DNA from: an uncultured Candidatus Saccharibacteria bacterium
GTDB lineage: Bacteria; Patescibacteriota; Minisyncoccia; Phycocordibacterales; UBA2100
Assembly (NCBI GenBank): GCA_964363895.1
Contig: CAYIJV010000004.1
Coordinates: forward strand, 1-40,067
Reading direction: 5' to 3'
Length of the DNA: 40,067 nucleotides
The position numbers and the translations under genes are program-made. The notes beneath the pieces were generated by a model, which saw nothing but the letters and a program-made list of their open reading frames with translations, did no database searches and had not been told where the DNA came from. This document shows positions 8,701 through 16,111 of this stretch, piece by piece (position 1 is the first letter of the stretch; every line of letters starts with the position of its first letter).

Positions 8701-9771
8701 ATGGCTGGATTTAAGAAAAAAGAAAAAGCACCGCCCAAGACAACCGGCACAGGGTCGGACGCGGATATCGAGCGAGCTATCTCCCAGATAAAAACCAAAT
8801 TCGGCGATGAGTCGATAATGATGCTCGGCGCGCAACCGAAAGTCGATGTGAATGCCATCTCGACCGGTTCAATAGGCGTCGATTGGGCGCTCGGCATCGG
8901 CGGATTGCCGCGCGGACGCATCATTGAAATATTCGGACCGGAATCCTCCGGTAAGACGACACTCTCACTTCACGTCATCGCCGAAGCGCAGAAGAAAGGA
9001 GGCATCTGCGCTTTCATCGACGCCGAGCACGCGCTCGATCCAGAATACGCAAAGAAACTTGGCGTACAGATCGAGCATCTCCTCGTATCGCAACCCGACA
9101 CGGGCGAACAGGCGCTCGAGATAACCGAATCGCTGGTACGTTCTGGAAAAATAGATGTCATCGTTATTGACTCCGTTGCGGCACTCACGCCCAAGGACGA
9201 AATAGAGGGCGATATGGGTGCACAGCATGTTGGCAAGCATGCACGGCTCATGTCGCAAGCGCTTCGCAAATTGACGGCAATCGTCGCAAAGACGAAGACC
9301 ATTATCATCTTCATCAACCAGATCCGCATGCAAATCGGCGTCATGTTCGGGAATCCCGAAACGACTACGGGTGGCAAGGCATTAAAATTCTACACGTCGG
9401 TGCGTATCGACATCCGCCGCATTGCACAGATAAAGAAAGGTGATGAAACAATGGGTGGCCGGCACCGCGTGAAAATCGTGAAGAACAAAATTGCGGCACC
9501 ATTTCGACAGACCGAATTCGACATGCTCTATGGAGAAGGCATCTCGCGCGAGGGTGAAGCCTTAGCGCTCGGTGAAAAGCTCGGCTTCGTCGCAAAATCT
9601 TCCGGCGGCTCGTATTCCATCGGGGAAACAAAGCTCGGCCGCGGCTATGATGCCGCGCGTACCTATCTGCGCGAGAACAAGCCCGTCTTGAATCAGCTTC
9701 TGAAAGATATCAAAAAGGGCCTCGCCGATGGCGGGATGACCGCAAAAAGTTCGAGCGGAGATGATGAGTAA
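8701..9771 (+). CDS. recA: Recombinase RecA
   Basis: [54 protein letters not shown]. Confidence 0.99.
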
Positions 9772-10093: not shown

Positions 10094-11791
10094 ATGCGCA
10101 CTATCAACCACCGTGCGATTCTCTTTTTCGGAATTGCGCTTATCCTCGTTTTCGCCGTTGCAACCCCGCTTTTTGCGCAGGAATCCACGATCACCTTCCC
10201 AATTGCCGATCTCGGCAATTGTGAATCCAAGAGCGCGTGTAAGACGTACTGCGATAACGCCACACATCATGATCAGTGCATCTCCTTTGCGGAGTCACAC
10301 GGCCTCATGAGCGCCGAAGAAGTGAAGATCGCCCGCGCAATCGGCAACGAAAAAGGACCAGGCGATTGCGTAGGATTTGAGTGCAAAGAATACTGTGACG
10401 CGGAGGAGCACATAGATGAATGCCTAGCATTTGCGGAGGAGCACGACATCATTCCACGTGAGGAAGTAGCTATTGCGAAAGAAGTGCGCACCAAGGGAGG
10501 TCCCGGGGGCTGCAAGAGCGAAAAGGAGTGTCGCGCGTATTGCGGCACCGATGGACACTTCGATGAGTGCATTGCGTTTGCCGAGAAGCACAATTTGATA
10601 TCGAAGGAAGAATTGAAGATAGCAAAGAAGATGGGCGACAAGCCGGGACCCGGTGGCTGCCGTCGCGAGGCATGCAAGACATACTGTGAAAATCCCGAAC
10701 ACATGAGCGAATGCGTTGATTTCGCAGTGCAAAGCGGCTTCATGACTGAAGAGGAAGCGACAATGGCAAGAAAAATGGGCAACAAAGAAGGCCCCGGAGG
10801 ATGTCGCGGGGAGGCATGTCGCACGTACTGCGAGACGCCCGAACACATGGAAGAGTGTCTTGCGTTTGCAGAAGAAAATGGGTTGATGTCGCGAGATGAG
10901 ATCGAACGCACGAAGAAATTCATGGGGAAACCCGGTCCGGGTGGGTGTATCGGTCAGCAATGCCGAACCTATTGCGAGGACCCCGCGCACCAGGATGCGT
11001 GTCTCTCGTTCGCGGAGGGAAACGGCATGATGTCACGCGAGGAAGCAGGGCACGCTCGAGAGTTTTCAAACAAGGAAGGCCCCGGAGGATGTCGCGGGGA
11101 AGCGTGCCGTACCTATTGCGGGGATCCGGCGCATATGGAGGCCTGCCGCGCATTTGCCGTCGAGAACGGATTCATAACGCAGGAAGATGCAGGTCGAATG
11201 AAAGAAATGCAAAACATAACAGGTCCTGGTGGGTGCAAGGGCGAGGAGTGCCGCACATACTGCGATGACCCCGCGAACATGGAGGCCTGTAGCACATTTG
11301 CCGAAGAGCACGGGTTCGGCGGACCGGACCATGAGGAGGGACTTGATCGAGCAATCGAGCGCCGCGGATTCGGTCCGCCAGCTGGCGGACCATCCGGAAA
11401 AATGCCCTGCGCATCGCCTGAAGAGTGCGAGCGAATGTACCGACAGAACCCTGATGATTTCAGAAAAAACATGGGAGAAGGGCCTCCGACCGGCGAAGAG
11501 CGAAGAGGCCGTACGAACGAATTCATGGGACGCCCCGATGAGAGCGGCAGCCCCACCAAACCGAAGCCCTATCAAGAAGGACTTCTGCAACCCGCGAGAG
11601 ATACGGGTCACATGCCGCCGGAATACCAAGGTCAGTATCAGCAAGAATATCAACGCCAATCCCAAGAGCAGTATAAAGAGCAATATCAGCAACAGATGCA
11701 ACAGACACAGCAGCAATATCAACAACAATCTCAACAGCCGCCGCCAAACGTGACTCCCCAAGAACAGCAGACGTATCAGCAGTACCCGTAA
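10094..11791 (+). CDS. Secreted Cys-rich repeat protein (GPGGC repeats) with a Gln-rich tail
   Basis: Signal peptide ending PLFA, then eight ~48-aa repeats, each with 4 Cys (GPGGC-x4-5-C-x-x-YC-x4-H-x3-C-x-x-FA), then a Pro/Gly-rich and Q/Y-rich C-terminus. Confidence 0.85.
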   Translation: MRTINHRAILFFGIALILVFAVATPLFAQESTITFPIADLGNCESKSACKTYCDNATHHDQCISFAESHGLMSAEEVKIARAIGNEKGPGDCVGFECKEYCDAEEHIDECLAFAEEHDIIPREEVAIAKEVRTKGGPGGCKSEKECRAYCGTDGHFDECIAFAEKHNLISKEELKIAKKMGDKPGPGGCRREACKTYCENPEHMSECVDFAVQSGFMTEEEATMARKMGNKEGPGGCRGEACRTYCETPEHMEECLAFAEENGLMSRDEIERTKKFMGKPGPGGCIGQQCRTYCEDPAHQDACLSFAEGNGMMSREEAGHAREFSNKEGPGGCRGEACRTYCGDPAHMEACRAFAVENGFITQEDAGRMKEMQNITGPGGCKGEECRTYCDDPANMEACSTFAEEHGFGGPDHEEGLDRAIERRGFGPPAGGPSGKMPCASPEECERMYRQNPDDFRKNMGEGPPTGEERRGRTNEFMGRPDESGSPTKPKPYQEGLLQPARDTGHMPPEYQGQYQQEYQRQSQEQYKEQYQQQMQQTQQQYQQQSQQPPPNVTPQEQQTYQQYP

Positions 11792-12409: not shown

Positions 12410-12418
12410 AACAAGACC

Positions 12419-12814
12419 CTATCTAAAAAATCCCCGATACTGGGGATAATTATCACATACAAGCCCCTTCCACCAATCGGTTTCTCGCGAGCCTCGTACA
12501 TCGGTCTTGCAGTATACAAGAAGAATCCGCGCATCCGCAGTGTCTGCGTGCAGAGCTACTATGTATCTATTTCCCGAGCCACGGCGGGATTTTTCGGTTC
12601 CATGCACACGAAAATCCACTTTGAACACTTTAACCCTTTCACTATGTACTATAGTGGTTGCATTGGATTTCGCTATCAAAACATCGAAATTCTTGAACTC
12701 ATCCAGAAGGCCCTTCCACGTGACGTCCCACGCGCTCTTGTACTTCTTCGAGAAACTGCTTACAAAGTGACGCTCGGCAAAGGGCTCGAGGTGTGGCACA
12801 TACTCAATAGACAT
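12419..12814 (-). CDS. Putative RelE/HigB-like toxin
   Basis: 131 aa, basic, and overlaps the 3' end of the antitoxin gene by 11 nt. KVDFRV...KSRRGSGNRYIVAL...RILLVYCK resembles the RelE/HigB pattern (GKSGGxRVIY...LLxxYxK). Confidence 0.6.
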   Translation of the reverse strand: MSIEYVPHLEPFAERHFVSSFSKKYKSAWDVTWKGLLDEFKNFDVLIAKSNATTIVHSERVKVFKVDFRVHGTEKSRRGSGNRYIVALHADTADARILLVYCKTDVRGSRETDWWKGLVCDNYPQYRGFFR

Positions 12815-13487
12815 TGTTGGGGTCTTCCTGAATGATAAGTTCGTACGGGATTAATTCGTTCTCGGCACAAATTTGGTATGGTAATTGCTCGTGAGTAAAG
12901 TCGACAATTTCCTGCGTTCGCTTTCCGCGCCATTTCGTCGCAACATCCGAAATGAGTTTCTGCTCTTCCGCAGATAGTAGGTCGAGGGGTGCATTTGGCG
13001 CGCTGCCCGCTTGCGAAATTAAAAGGGCTTCATCTTTTTTCTCAATATCAATTTTCCCGCTTTCGAAAAGCTCATCAAGTGCACGAAAATAGAGATCCGG
13101 CACTGGGCCGTATTGTATGCGACGATACTGCATATCGCTCATACTTTGCAAATTGCGATAGAACCACGCAAAATCGGCTAGGTAGAGTAATTTTGCTAAT
13201 TTGGTCTTTGGCACTTTACCGCGAGAGTCCGCCCCAACGCGTAGGAACGCTAATACCATCTGCTTGTATTTCTCATAGTTTGGCGTGACTGTGCTCGAAA
13301 GCTCCTCAAGAGTTATCCCAAAAAGTTGCACGAATCGGTGTGCTTCCTCCAAACTCAATTCACGAGATCCATTTTCAACGGCAATATAGGACGATCGTGC
13401 GATACCTAGCTTCTCAGCCAAAAAGGCCTGAGAAAAAGTGTGTTTCCTACGTAACGACTTAATAAATGGGCCTAATTTGTTGGTCAT
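12804..13487 (-). CDS. XRE-HTH plus Panacea (DUF4065/SocA/GepA) antitoxin
   Basis: N-terminal Cro/C1 HTH (IKSLRRKHTFSQAFLAEKLGIARSSYIAVENG) and Panacea motifs KLAKLLYLADF, YGPVP and DFTHEQLPY. Confidence 0.85.
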   Translation of the reverse strand: MTNKLGPFIKSLRRKHTFSQAFLAEKLGIARSSYIAVENGSRELSLEEAHRFVQLFGITLEELSSTVTPNYEKYKQMVLAFLRVGADSRGKVPKTKLAKLLYLADFAWFYRNLQSMSDMQYRRIQYGPVPDLYFRALDELFESGKIDIEKKDEALLISQAGSAPNAPLDLLSAEEQKLISDVATKWRGKRTQEIVDFTHEQLPYQICAENELIPYELIIQEDPNNVY

Positions 13488-13701
13488 AAAGGCACTATAT
13501 CATGGTATGTCAGGAATGTGTACATCATGTGTATAACTACCAGACGTATGTGTGCTATAATTCTTTCAATTCGGAGCACCGAGGATTATCAGCAAGGATT
13601 TCTCAACATCCTCCTGTAGATACTCCTTATACAGCCCAAACAAAAACTCAAGACGCTCGGGTTCGGATTTGAAGCTCTTTTTGCCGTAGCAGGTATGGTT
13701 C

Positions 13702-15708
13702 TTATTCACCGTCCGGCTCAACAACTTCTTGTACAACGCCCTGCACGCTATCGCCCTCCTCTGGTGTTATCGGCATGTGATTCTTGTTACTACTTTTGGG
13801 CAATAAGATTCTACGACCGTCTTTTTTGTCATACATTTTGATTGTCACATTATCGCCTAGTAGGGCGACAACCCTATCGCCCGTGTCTGCCTTTAGTTGC
13901 TGACGACATAAAACGAGATCGCCGTTATTGATGCCTGCAAGGTTCATAGAATCACCTTCTGCTCTGAGAATAAAGTATTTATAACCTGATTTTATCTTTG
14001 ATTTTTCAACCAATACATGGTCCTCAATGTTTTCTTGTCCGAACAAAGGACTGCCGCACGGGGCTGATCCTACAAGAGGTATCCTGATCATGTCCAACGT
14101 AATTGGAGATTTAACGAGTCCACTGTAATTCATCCTCATGCTCACCCCCATTCTCGACTTGAAGTACCTCTCTGTTTCTTTGTCCACAAAATACACATAG
14201 CACCCTCGCATGCCCCGGGTCATAAGCGTCTTGTAGATATTGATGATGTATCTCTCTAATTCGGCAGGATCTGTAATTCCCCTCCACCCGTTTCTATCCT
14301 CGTACTTGTCACCATTTACTACGAGTCGATCCGCTGTGGCATCGTATGCCAACTCGGGACCTACTATGACGCCCACATAATTTAAGTCATATCCTTGTAC
14401 TGTGTGAATGCAACCGACCTCGTTTATCGCGTTGGGCGAGTTGACCCAGTCAGTCGTAGTGCTATTCCATCTCAATTTGAGCCCATTGATATCGATGTCA
14501 GTTGCATCGGGACTCCCCCTACTAATCCACGGCCATGCAAATCCCGCCACAATCCGACTTAGACTGAATTTTCTGTTTTTGATTTTAATATCTGCAACCA
14601 TCTCTGTAGCGTCGTCATAGATTTGGAAATCGAAGTCATGGAACTTCGAATCAAGAGCCTTTTGTCCCTTAAATATATTATTGATAAACGCAATATACTT
14701 TTCTCCACCTTTCACTCGAAGCTGGCTCGTTAGGAAGTGGTGTACTGCTACAAGATTCTTGAATCGCGCGACGTGAACATCGGCGGGTCTAATGCTTTGA
14801 TTTTCATCGTAAAAGAGAATCTGCTGCTTTGAGCACTTGAGAACCCAATCCAGCTCCGTACCGTCCTGCCCGAACTCTAGTCGCTTGTTCATCGCGTCAT
14901 GGCTTCTATAATTTGTGATATTCCGACGCTGCCTTAGCCGATGTGCTTCATCAACAATCAGCAGGTCGTATTTTTTGTCTGCGACTTCGCTTGGTCCTAT
15001 AACCATGCTCTCCGAGAGCCCAGACACGCGTGAAAATGCGTCCTTAATTGATCTGCGCAACGGCGTCATTGATATAACCAGTCCGACTGAAAGATCTTTT
15101 GTCTCATCGTCTTCTTTGAGCAACTTAACCAGATATGTCGCTAAAATAGTTTTGCCTGTGCCGGGGCCACCATTCACAATATGCGTACTTGCCTGACCTG
15201 TTCTAACAGCATGGTACAGTTCATCAGCCACTGCCATCTGATCCTCTGTAAGTGCCTTATATGGGGAATACTTAAACAATTCGCTGTTCTCGATGTCCTT
15301 TAAATCACGCTTCACTAGCGCTAGCTCTTGAAGTTTTTTCCAGATTGTTTCCAGTTTTGCGCGATATCGGTCCCTGTCAAAGTAATTGTGGTTCACCAAC
15401 CCCTTATTGCCATTTTGTAGGCGGAGGGTTCCTTCTGCAGAAAAATACTGAATTAGTTGCGACTCGAGGTCGAGTGTGGCTGATTTGTTATATTCCTCAT
15501 CCGTTATGACATGCAGTGTTTTCAAGCGAGCCCGATCCTCATTTTCGTAGTGTTGTCTGCTTCGATTATGCGCGCTGGTTGTTTCACCTATATATACCTC
15601 GCGTCCGTTTTCTATTATGTAGACCACTGGCCAATCTCGCCCAAGTGGAAATCTTTTAATACCTTCAAAGCCCACCTTATCGAACGCAAATGTTTCGATG
15701 TTGGACAT
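13702..15708 (-). CDS. GIY-YIG nuclease / DUF2075 (Schlafen group-3-type SF1 helicase) / LexA-like S24 peptidase fusion
   Basis: N-terminal VVYII...VYIGET...R. Helicase motifs GGPGTGKT, IVDEAH, CIHTVQGYDL and LMTRG. C-terminal IPLVGSAPCGSP...GDSM...GDLV...VTIK is an S24 domain. Confidence 0.88.
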   Translation of the reverse strand: MSNIETFAFDKVGFEGIKRFPLGRDWPVVYIIENGREVYIGETTSAHNRSRQHYENEDRARLKTLHVITDEEYNKSATLDLESQLIQYFSAEGTLRLQNGNKGLVNHNYFDRDRYRAKLETIWKKLQELALVKRDLKDIENSELFKYSPYKALTEDQMAVADELYHAVRTGQASTHIVNGGPGTGKTILATYLVKLLKEDDETKDLSVGLVISMTPLRRSIKDAFSRVSGLSESMVIGPSEVADKKYDLLIVDEAHRLRQRRNITNYRSHDAMNKRLEFGQDGTELDWVLKCSKQQILFYDENQSIRPADVHVARFKNLVAVHHFLTSQLRVKGGEKYIAFINNIFKGQKALDSKFHDFDFQIYDDATEMVADIKIKNRKFSLSRIVAGFAWPWISRGSPDATDIDINGLKLRWNSTTTDWVNSPNAINEVGCIHTVQGYDLNYVGVIVGPELAYDATADRLVVNGDKYEDRNGWRGITDPAELERYIINIYKTLMTRGMRGCYVYFVDKETERYFKSRMGVSMRMNYSGLVKSPITLDMIRIPLVGSAPCGSPLFGQENIEDHVLVEKSKIKSGYKYFILRAEGDSMNLAGINNGDLVLCRQQLKADTGDRVVALLGDNVTIKMYDKKDGRRILLPKSSNKNHMPITPEEGDSVQGVVQEVVEPDGE

Positions 15709-15711
15709 ACA

Positions 15712-16059
15712 CTAGAACTTCGTGTACTTGGTGTGCTTTCCTTTTGATTTCTTTATCGGGTATTTCTTCTCGTTCTTTTTCATTTTCTCTTCGAACGCTT
15801 TAAACAGATCAATCTCCAAATCTTTGCTCATGATCGCTACCCAATACAGCACATCTGCAAGTTCGTCTGCAATCTCCCCCTTGTGCGAGCGAACATACTT
15901 TTTCATCTCTCCGGGATTTTTCCACTGAAAATGCTCCATGAGCTCAGCCGCCTCCAAAACAAGTGACAGTGCCACATCCTTAGGATTATGGAACTGTTTC
16001 CAATCTCGGGCATCCCGAAAAGCTATCGCCTTCTTTTGAACATCCCGCCAGTTGACCAT
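15712..16059 (-). CDS. MazG-like (dCTP pyrophosphatase-type) nucleotide pyrophosphohydrolase
   Basis: FRDARDWKQFHNPKDVALSLVLEAAELMEHFQW...DELADV...KMKKNEKKYP. CATAAT lies 6 nt before ATG 16059. Confidence 0.92.
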   Translation of the reverse strand: MVNWRDVQKKAIAFRDARDWKQFHNPKDVALSLVLEAAELMEHFQWKNPGEMKKYVRSHKGEIADELADVLYWVAIMSKDLEIDLFKAFEEKMKKNEKKYPIKKSKGKHTKYTKF

Positions 16060-16111
16060 GGGGGCATTATGGCTCAATTCGAGCCCTTCGTCAGCTTGCT
16101 ACTGCTAAACC

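Follow-up and report, generated by a model that had tools for sequence, protein, structure and literature searches.

Why should a nuclease-helicase of an ultra-small bacterium end in a domain that resembles the self-cleaving part of LexA? This question is raised by a 40,067-nucleotide stretch of DNA (positions 1 to 40,067 of the forward strand of contig CAYIJV010000004.1, assembly GCA_964363895.1), hereafter the window, from an uncultured Candidatus Saccharibacteria bacterium living in groundwater, with a genome of 662 kb that is assembled in 44 contigs and 93% complete. The locus codes for a MazG-like pyrophosphatase and for a large protein predicted to combine a GIY-YIG nuclease, a DUF2075 helicase and a C-terminal Peptidase_S24 domain. 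An earlier reading of the letters alone, without database searches (the sequence-only reading), had proposed that RecA filaments trigger self-cleavage of the S24 tail and thereby switch the nuclease on or off. Our analyses show that the fusion is a real, recurrent variant that is apparently undescribed. As to its function, we favour a model in which autocleavage stimulated by RecA filaments would license an accessory, probably anti-phage nuclease-helicase, and we put the probability of this licensing model at roughly 45%. The features of the two genes are as follows.

15712 to 16059, minus strand: MazG-like/DCTPP1-like nucleotide pyrophosphohydrolase, 115 residues (PF12643, PDB matches)
13702 to 15708, minus strand: GIY-YIG, DUF2075 helicase and S24 fusion, 668 residues (open reading frame list, Pfam, NCBIfam, AlphaFold2, Foldseek)
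15439 to 15627, minus strand: putative GIY-YIG nuclease domain, residues 28-90 (Pfam, 20.9 bits, below the cut-off of 22.6)
14182 to 15183, minus strand: superfamily 1B (SF1B) helicase, DUF2075/Schlafen group 3, residues 176-509 (Pfam, fold matches)
14080 to 14181, minus strand: linker, residues 510-543, poorly conserved and probably disordered (model confidence, alignment)
13732 to 14079, minus strand: Peptidase S24 of the LexA/UmuD type, residues 544-659 (Pfam, LexA fold match)
14053 to 14058, minus strand: predicted scissile bond Cys551-Gly552 (alignment to LexA Ala84-Gly85)
13948 to 13950, minus strand: predicted catalytic Ser587, in GDSM (alignment to LexA Ser119)
13837 to 13839, minus strand: predicted general-base Lys624, in VTIK (alignment to LexA Lys156)

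The list of open reading frames (ORFs) bears out the layout that had been read from the letters, two adjoining genes 3 nt apart with a 668-residue product, and the positions first given for the cleavage site and the catalytic Ser and Lys are arithmetically right for a start at 15708. The fusion ORF begins with ATG. The mechanical call of the MazG-like ORF extends from 15712 to 16077 on the minus strand, giving 121 residues from a TTG codon; the ATG at 16059 is the more likely start.

Pfam searches assigned residues 176-509 of the fusion to the SLFN-g3_helicase/DUF2075 family (PF09848, E 2e-65) and residues 544-659 to Peptidase_S24 (PF00717, E 1.6e-21, 76.6 bits against a cut-off of 23.3). The GIY-YIG match at the N-terminus (E 4.5e-4) falls slightly under the Pfam cut-off, which relatives of the fusion pass, e.g. 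with 27.6 and 29.7 bits. Residues Y30, Y39, G41, R49, E82 and N99 of this domain (Y39 to G41 being the YIG motif), which we take to be catalytic, are invariant in all 30 aligned sequences, as are the Walker A (G180-K186) and Walker B (D253-E254) motifs of the helicase. The C-terminus of the fusion matches UmuD and LexA model positions 79-198 in NCBIfam. The protein lies outside the LexA family itself (TIGR00498, 80.7 bits against a cut-off of 110.95): its N-terminus is a nuclease-helicase, with no winged helix-turn-helix (wHTH).

LexA is cut between Ala84 and Gly85 by a dyad of catalytic Ser119 and general-base Lys156, and Cys-Gly is the cleavage site of UmuD. We located the corresponding positions of the fusion by counting columns in a phmmer alignment to Escherichia coli LexA (7b5g_A): C551-G552 aligns with A84-G85, S587 with S119 and K624 with K156. 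The AlphaFold2 model of the fusion has a mean predicted local distance difference test score (pLDDT) of 79.6 and a predicted template modelling (TM) score of 0.69, with low-confidence, presumably flexible parts towards the C-terminal end at residues 523-538 of the linker (pLDDT <50) and in the cleavage loop (550-553). No consensus residues appear in the alignment of the linker. In Foldseek searches, the C-terminal part of the model matched LexA C-terminal domains with target TM scores of 0.77-0.83 and root-mean-square deviations of 2.7-3.0 Å, and its middle part matched RecD2, Upf1, RecD, SLFN11 (7zel), Dna2 and Dda. The three-domain architecture, with a putative GIY-YIG part, and the complete S24 active site claimed by the sequence-only reading are thus both upheld, and the fusion tail is predicted to have an intact S24 fold, Ser-Lys dyad and Cys-Gly bond.

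A fusion confined to one assembly might have been an artefact. A word-index search returned 7874 matches, and among the best 120, which we inspected, 113 share the fusion architecture over ~665-690 residues at 57-80% identity, the other seven being forms of ~520-540 residues without S24. The source names of the best homologues point to metagenome-assembled genomes of Patescibacteria. Furthermore, sequencing runs of two further studies yielded contigs that span the junction of helicase and S24 and show 0-1 differences (X5 record 2 over 12784-14852 with 0 differences; X6 record 7 over 13942-15369; X9 record 21 over 14000-14224). An assembly chimera or a lost stop codon is ruled out by these homologues and bridging contigs. 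We also scanned relatives with one genome per species, which gave at least 596, and examined the best 80 loci. Of these 80 species-level loci, 39 carry an S24 tail, and the architecture is thus recurrent across genomes.

The tails fall into three sequence types that are about 40% identical or less to one another. Type A, that of the fusion under study, reads '..VPLVGSAPCG..GDSMN..VTIK..', and type B '..SVGCGE..GDSMN..ATIKEY..'. Type C ('..AAAG..GESMN..YTVKEY..') occurs in proteins of ~730 residues from Bacteroidota, including named Flavobacterium and Pedobacter; according to record titles, carriers L092, L099 and L104 are Flavobacterium nitrogenifigens NXU-44, Pedobacter zeae DSM 100774 and Pedobacter sp. 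R-06. As these are named strains, genetics in a native host may be possible. The tail-less forms end at ~520-530 residues and belong, by their record titles, to Patescibacteria, Firmicutes, Bacteroidota and Woesearchaeota. When homologues are clustered at 50% identity, the tail is carried by 19 of the best 150 representatives. Pfam analyses of ten long representatives identified a C-terminal S24 domain in nine, and an N-terminal HSDR_N domain instead in the tenth; any C-terminal extension in this family is S24.

The catalytic Ser is found in all 226 distinct tails, the general-base Lys in 224 (one sequence has Arg and one is truncated) and the P1' Gly in 225. The P1 residue is Cys in 202 tails and Ala in 22, with one Ile and one gap, i.e. 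Cys or Ala in 224/226. The conservation of Ser, Lys and Cys-Gly, for which the sequence-only reading had suggested a check, therefore holds. These counts bear on the idea that the tail is never cut in vivo and has no other task than to dimerise the protein or to tether it to RecA filaments. The S24 domains of LexA, UmuD and CI do dimerise, but a pure scaffold would not be expected to keep both the dyad and the scissile dipeptide across three types, which makes this idea highly improbable. As dyad and scissile dipeptide are kept in such divergent tails, self-cleavage would be the parsimonious function.

On a tree of the nuclease-helicase core (78 rows, with the truncated proteins L076, L079 and L081 of <480 residues excluded), tail presence or absence changes at least 15 times, at least 10 of these changes being forced by well-supported branches. 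Types A and B and tail-less forms interleave. Thus, one well-supported clade of six members holds the fusion (type A), L028 (type B) and L031, a tail-less protein of 524 residues that is 74% identical to the fusion. Types A and B sit on cores that are 73-80% identical to each other, and the cores of tail-less orthologues are 74-80% identical, with invariant catalytic motifs. On a tree of the S24 domains, a branch with a support of 99 joins type A with the LexA proteins of Patescibacteria, apart from types B and C, and the branch leading to type C is very long. Fusion frames L127, L129 and L132 were excluded from the non-fusion rows of the latter tree, which was also built without the Bacteroidota LexA-like frames L124-L126, L128, L130 and L131, whose matches to the hidden Markov model of the tail cover <80 residues.

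The same tail is found on another enzyme. A second DUF2075 family of ~765 residues (P0121, P0137, P0141 and P0147) has an unannotated, unrelated N-terminus of 260 residues followed by a helicase and an S24 tail. Its tail and linker are ~85% identical to those of the fusion and its helicase region is much less similar; PADLOC gives it just partial matches to Nhi, AbiO and PDC-S41. Moreover, the 65 homologues with core identities <62% average 56.6% identity in the core and 76.8% in the tail. Together, the two trees, the second family and the higher conservation of the tail argue for a portable cassette under selection that would have been captured or exchanged several times. The same results argue further that something other than the enzyme constrains the tail, most obviously, it may be, the conserved RecA filament.

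The trigger might be something else, such as a phage protein, a nucleotide, pH or a conformational change induced by a partner. LexA-like proteins that cleave without RecA have been reported, for instance IrvR (PMC7101444), and three divergent tail types could sense different cues. Nevertheless, type A tails are nearest to the LexA of Patescibacteria, and a tail more conserved than its core is as expected if it fits the highly conserved RecA filament. We consider a trigger other than RecA filaments very unlikely.

Other fusions of S24 proteins came to light in this work. In other genomes of Patescibacteria, a complete LexA (LexA_DNA_bind and Peptidase_S24) is in frame with a DNA methyltransferase, the frames coding for 476-564 residues. 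All 10 long S24 frames that were inspected read as LexA-methyltransferase fusions, and three were confirmed with Pfam (L116:727-2304(-), L117:392-2086(+) and L118:839-2269(-); see also L106-L115). They involve three families of methyltransferases, C5 DNA_methylase, D12 N6-adenine and N6_N4_Mtase. We know of no description of such fusions, at which no dedicated literature search was aimed.

The second component of the locus is recurrent as well. A MazG-like homologue is encoded immediately upstream of the helicase gene in 79/80 loci, the exception being L068, where just 48 bases of upstream DNA are present. This observation confirms the MazG pairing recognised in the sequence-only reading. A conserved third gene is ruled out, since 76 downstream neighbours represent 76 families. 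With a conserved gene upstream and none downstream, MazG and the GIY-YIG-helicase constitute a conserved two-gene module. The MazG-like protein matches PF12643 (E 4e-17, 62.6 bits against a cut-off of 27), and in the PDB the pyrophosphatase 4qgp (E 3e-20) and dCTP pyrophosphatase 1 (DCTPP1; E 5e-18). Its metal-binding acidic residues E36, E39, E42, E66 and D69 are invariant in the 38 aligned partners. It resembles the all-alpha, MazG-type dCTP pyrophosphatases DCTPP1/RS21-C6 over nearly its full length, including these residues; unlike them, it has a nuclease-helicase as its constant operon partner. A predicted complex of the two proteins scored 0.00, which is evidence neither way. Tail-less pairs also occur on megaplasmids of the Bacillus cereus group, next to genes for an HNH endonuclease and a zeta toxin, and are annotated there only as 'nucleotide pyrophosphohydrolase' and 'DUF2075 domain-containing protein'.

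How might such a module work? In the licensing model, RecA filaments would form on single-stranded DNA (ssDNA) of phage replication or recombination intermediates, or of damaged DNA. The S24 tail would dock on these filaments and cut itself at Cys551-Gly552, freeing a nuclease-helicase of ~551 residues, near the size of the natural tail-less orthologues. The enzyme would thereby be licensed at ssDNA, where an SF1B helicase loads. The MazG partner may hydrolyse dCTP or modified dCTP and, more speculatively, deplete the pool or block the reuse of nucleotides from degraded modified DNA. The persistence of tail-less orthologues with invariant motifs implies that the core must work alone, and the predicted 1-551 product resembles them. 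On these two grounds we infer that cleavage would license the enzyme rather than inactivate it.

The switch might nevertheless have the opposite sense. The protein would then be active uncleaved, for instance as an S24 dimer, and its cleavage at RecA filaments during host repair would dismantle or destabilise it, sparing the cell's own recombination intermediates. Such an off-switch would follow the example of LexA and CI, whose cleavage exposes degrons, and the S24 fold and cleavage site are as in LexA. In addition, 20 of the 23 carriers have a LexA-sized S24 protein, so that an SOS-type state exists in them. The tail-less orthologues do not fit this scheme, as loss of the tail is not loss of function, unless these proteins are dimerised otherwise. 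We regard the off-switch as unlikely.

The 20/23 fusion-bearing genomes that also keep a LexA-sized S24 protein lead us to reject the replacement of LexA by the fusion as a general rule. In these carriers, the tail would compete with LexA for RecA filaments, not take its place. No canonical LexA was found in the host genome at its 93% completeness; recA is present, and the S24-clan matches are the fusion and, on contig C29, signal peptidase I only. A genome of the same genus (G442) has a LexA-sized S24 frame of 199 residues. RecA proteins are 86-90% identical within the genus. Across the phylum, the PF00717 tally is 382/401 with the unpublished genome G154 included; no other claim rests on it.

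The genomic context of the module was analysed in the window and in related genomes. The additional features are as follows.

12410 to 16111, strand not applicable: accessory insertion between efp and rpsR, ~3.7 kb with four minus-strand genes
16066 to 16094, minus strand: promoter-like site CTGACG-17-CATAAT just upstream of the MazG-like gene (consensus match only, weak)
12804 to 13487, minus strand: HTH_3 and SocA/Panacea antitoxin-like protein, 227 residues (Pfam)
12419 to 12814, minus strand: RelE/ParE-like toxin candidate, 131 residues (ESM Atlas lead only)
8701 to 9771, plus strand: recA, presumed to act in trans as co-protease (Pfam RecA, E 7e-137)

In genomes G416 and G408 of the same genus, efp is directly followed by rpsR-ssb-rpsF, without the insertion. 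The GC content of the insertion is 0.44-0.455, and that of its flanks roughly 0.49-0.55. Promoter-like sites are not in excess in the region, with 6 observed and 7.6 expected. The antitoxin-like gene and the 131-residue gene overlap by 11 nt. The 131-residue protein has no Pfam, PADLOC or NCBIfam match; as a lead only, it resembles RelE-family clusters of the ESM Atlas (score 0.96, TM 0.93). Homologues of the Panacea antitoxin and of the 131-residue protein are found downstream of the fusion gene in just 2/80 loci (L037 and L044). The toxin-antitoxin pair is a co-inserted neighbour of the fusion and not a conserved partner.

The sequence-only reading had drawn attention to a recA gene 4 kb away. 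Its location is right, but its proximity carries no weight: recA lies at about the same distance from efp in relatives of the genus that lack the module, so its closeness reflects where the island landed and has no functional meaning. We therefore reject a functional link between the fusion and the nearby recA gene. Between recA and the insertion, positions 10094-11791 of the plus strand code for a 565-residue protein without Pfam match, made of Cys-rich repeats of ~45 residues ('GPGGC..C..YC....H..C..FAE..G') and a Gln-rich tail, in a region of strong AT skew.

The module is rare. Full-length fusions are present in 2/25 genomes of the genus, and the core in 4/301 genomes of Patescibacteria that are at least 90% complete, host included; the other three of these cores are tail-less and one of them is broken by a stop codon. 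No record of the phage collection covers at least 80% of the fusion protein, IMG/VR holds just 5 related loci, and the plasmid collection has tail-less copies only. With this near-absence from phage collections, the idea of a phage-borne gene is unsupported.

These data also bear on a housekeeping role, in which the pair would process damaged forks or recombination intermediates and sanitise the dNTP pool in a non-immune response to DNA damage. The proposed link of S24 to RecA filaments would suit such a role, enzymes of the DCTPP1 type clean the nucleotide pool, and many neighbours of the module are housekeeping genes. However, repair genes would hardly be as rare as those counted above, inserted with a toxin-antitoxin pair, subject to frequent swap or loss of the tail and carried on megaplasmids, and we find this role quite improbable. 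The rare, patchy, island-borne, tail-swapping and megaplasmid pattern is more in keeping with accessory conflict genes than with repair genes. Most likely, the module would be directed against phages or other mobile DNA.

Known defence systems offer partial parallels. In the passages available from the corresponding papers, Nhi is described as an anti-phage fusion of a PD-(D/E)XK nuclease and a DUF2075 SF1B helicase, an 'Nhi-like' protein of the same architecture is also anti-phage, and GIY-YIG-DUF2075 fusions are named in passing as candidates for phage attenuation; those passages make no mention of S24. Like Nhi of Staphylococcus epidermidis and the Nhi-like protein, the fusion joins a predicted N-terminal nuclease to a DUF2075 SF1B helicase in a single chain. 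It differs from Nhi by its putative GIY-YIG nuclease, its S24 tail and its obligate MazG-like partner (79/80), whereas Nhi is described as a single-gene system. PADLOC gave only partial helicase matches to Nhi and AbiO (E ~1e-11, residues 142-371) and GIY-YIG matches to the candidate PDC-S14. The match to Nhi is not full length, as it covers residues 142-362 and model positions 173-358 of 470 (E 1.3e-11).

With LexA, UmuD and phage CI (MEROPS S24), the tail shares the predicted fold, the Ser-Lys dyad and the Ala/Cys-Gly bond at aligned positions. As in UmuD, the S24 domain would regulate an enzyme post-translationally instead of acting on transcription; in contrast with all three, it sits C-terminal to a nuclease-helicase of 540 residues, with no wHTH. 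Human SLFN11 and the other Schlafens of group 3 have a homologous helicase domain and, likewise, a nuclease N-terminal to it. Their nuclease is the Schlafen RNase rather than GIY-YIG, sequence similarity is confined to the helicase, and the proposed sensing by S24 autocleavage is without Schlafen counterpart. Phage P1 Ref is a nuclease dependent on RecA filaments. The available passages on SLFN11 state that its nuclease is switched on by binding of ssDNA to the helicase domain, a parallel to the sensing of ssDNA and RecA filaments proposed for the fusion (PMC13056530). Gp16 of phage PhiNM1 is, like Ref, reported to be a nuclease dependent on RecA (PMC12817073). Neither Ref nor Gp16 is homologous to the fusion; both are phage-encoded and have no S24 domain.

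We found no published description of an S24-DUF2075 fusion in the literature searched, which excluded subscription journals and supplementary tables, including those of the defence-system catalogue. Searches combining S24, LexA-like or RecA-filament terms with defence terms gave nothing in the same literature, and the passages available from papers on Schlafen defence and on SRAP hold nothing on such a fusion. The statement in the sequence-only reading that this is not known as a characterised system thus stands.

Several points weigh against the licensing model. Cleavage inactivates both LexA and phage CI, and known precedents therefore do not favour activation. Some LexA-like proteins, such as IrvR above, do not need RecA for their cleavage, and in most carriers the tail would face competition from a LexA-sized protein. 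The two trees are quick ones, and that of the short S24 domain comes with long-branch warnings; they point to separate captures of the three tail types without proving them. No PADLOC system model fits the fusion or the module, so that the check proposed at the outset returned no defence system. The 76 downstream families, many of them housekeeping, do not establish a defence-island enrichment. In favour of a defence character, restriction or defence genes do occur among the neighbours at other loci (Mrr_cat twice, GmrSD_N, DUF3427, CAP12 TIR and NA-iREase1 twice). The proposal of a defence system keeps its circumstantial side, namely a patchy distribution, an insertion shared with a toxin-antitoxin pair and an Nhi-like architecture. 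The functional side of the proposal is drawn wholly from sequence.

To our knowledge, all characterised S24 switches act by removing a repressor from DNA, with the exception of UmuD. An S24 domain gating a nuclease-helicase directly would extend the RecA-filament signal to the immediate, transcription-independent control of an effector, and the speed of such control could be important for bacteria whose tiny genomes hold few regulators. The DUF2075/Nhi/Schlafen helicase group would also gain a defined sensor module. Nature provides a series with which the hypothesis is testable, composed of proteins without a tail, of nearly identical cores that bear type A or type B, and of type C in cultivable Flavobacterium and Pedobacter. 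The DCTPP1-like partner raises a second question, how hydrolysis of the nucleotide pool cooperates with a nuclease-helicase. More broadly, the three tail lineages, the second DUF2075 family and the LexA-methyltransferase fusions hint that S24 might be a portable, protein-level sensor cassette for RecA filaments, captured repeatedly by conflict systems, a generalisation that we offer tentatively and hold to be rather doubtful. If it were true, phage replication or DNA damage would be sensed, and nucleases and methylases fired or retuned without transcription, and such sensing would be, in prokaryotes, a functional equivalent of SLFN11 with its activation by ssDNA.

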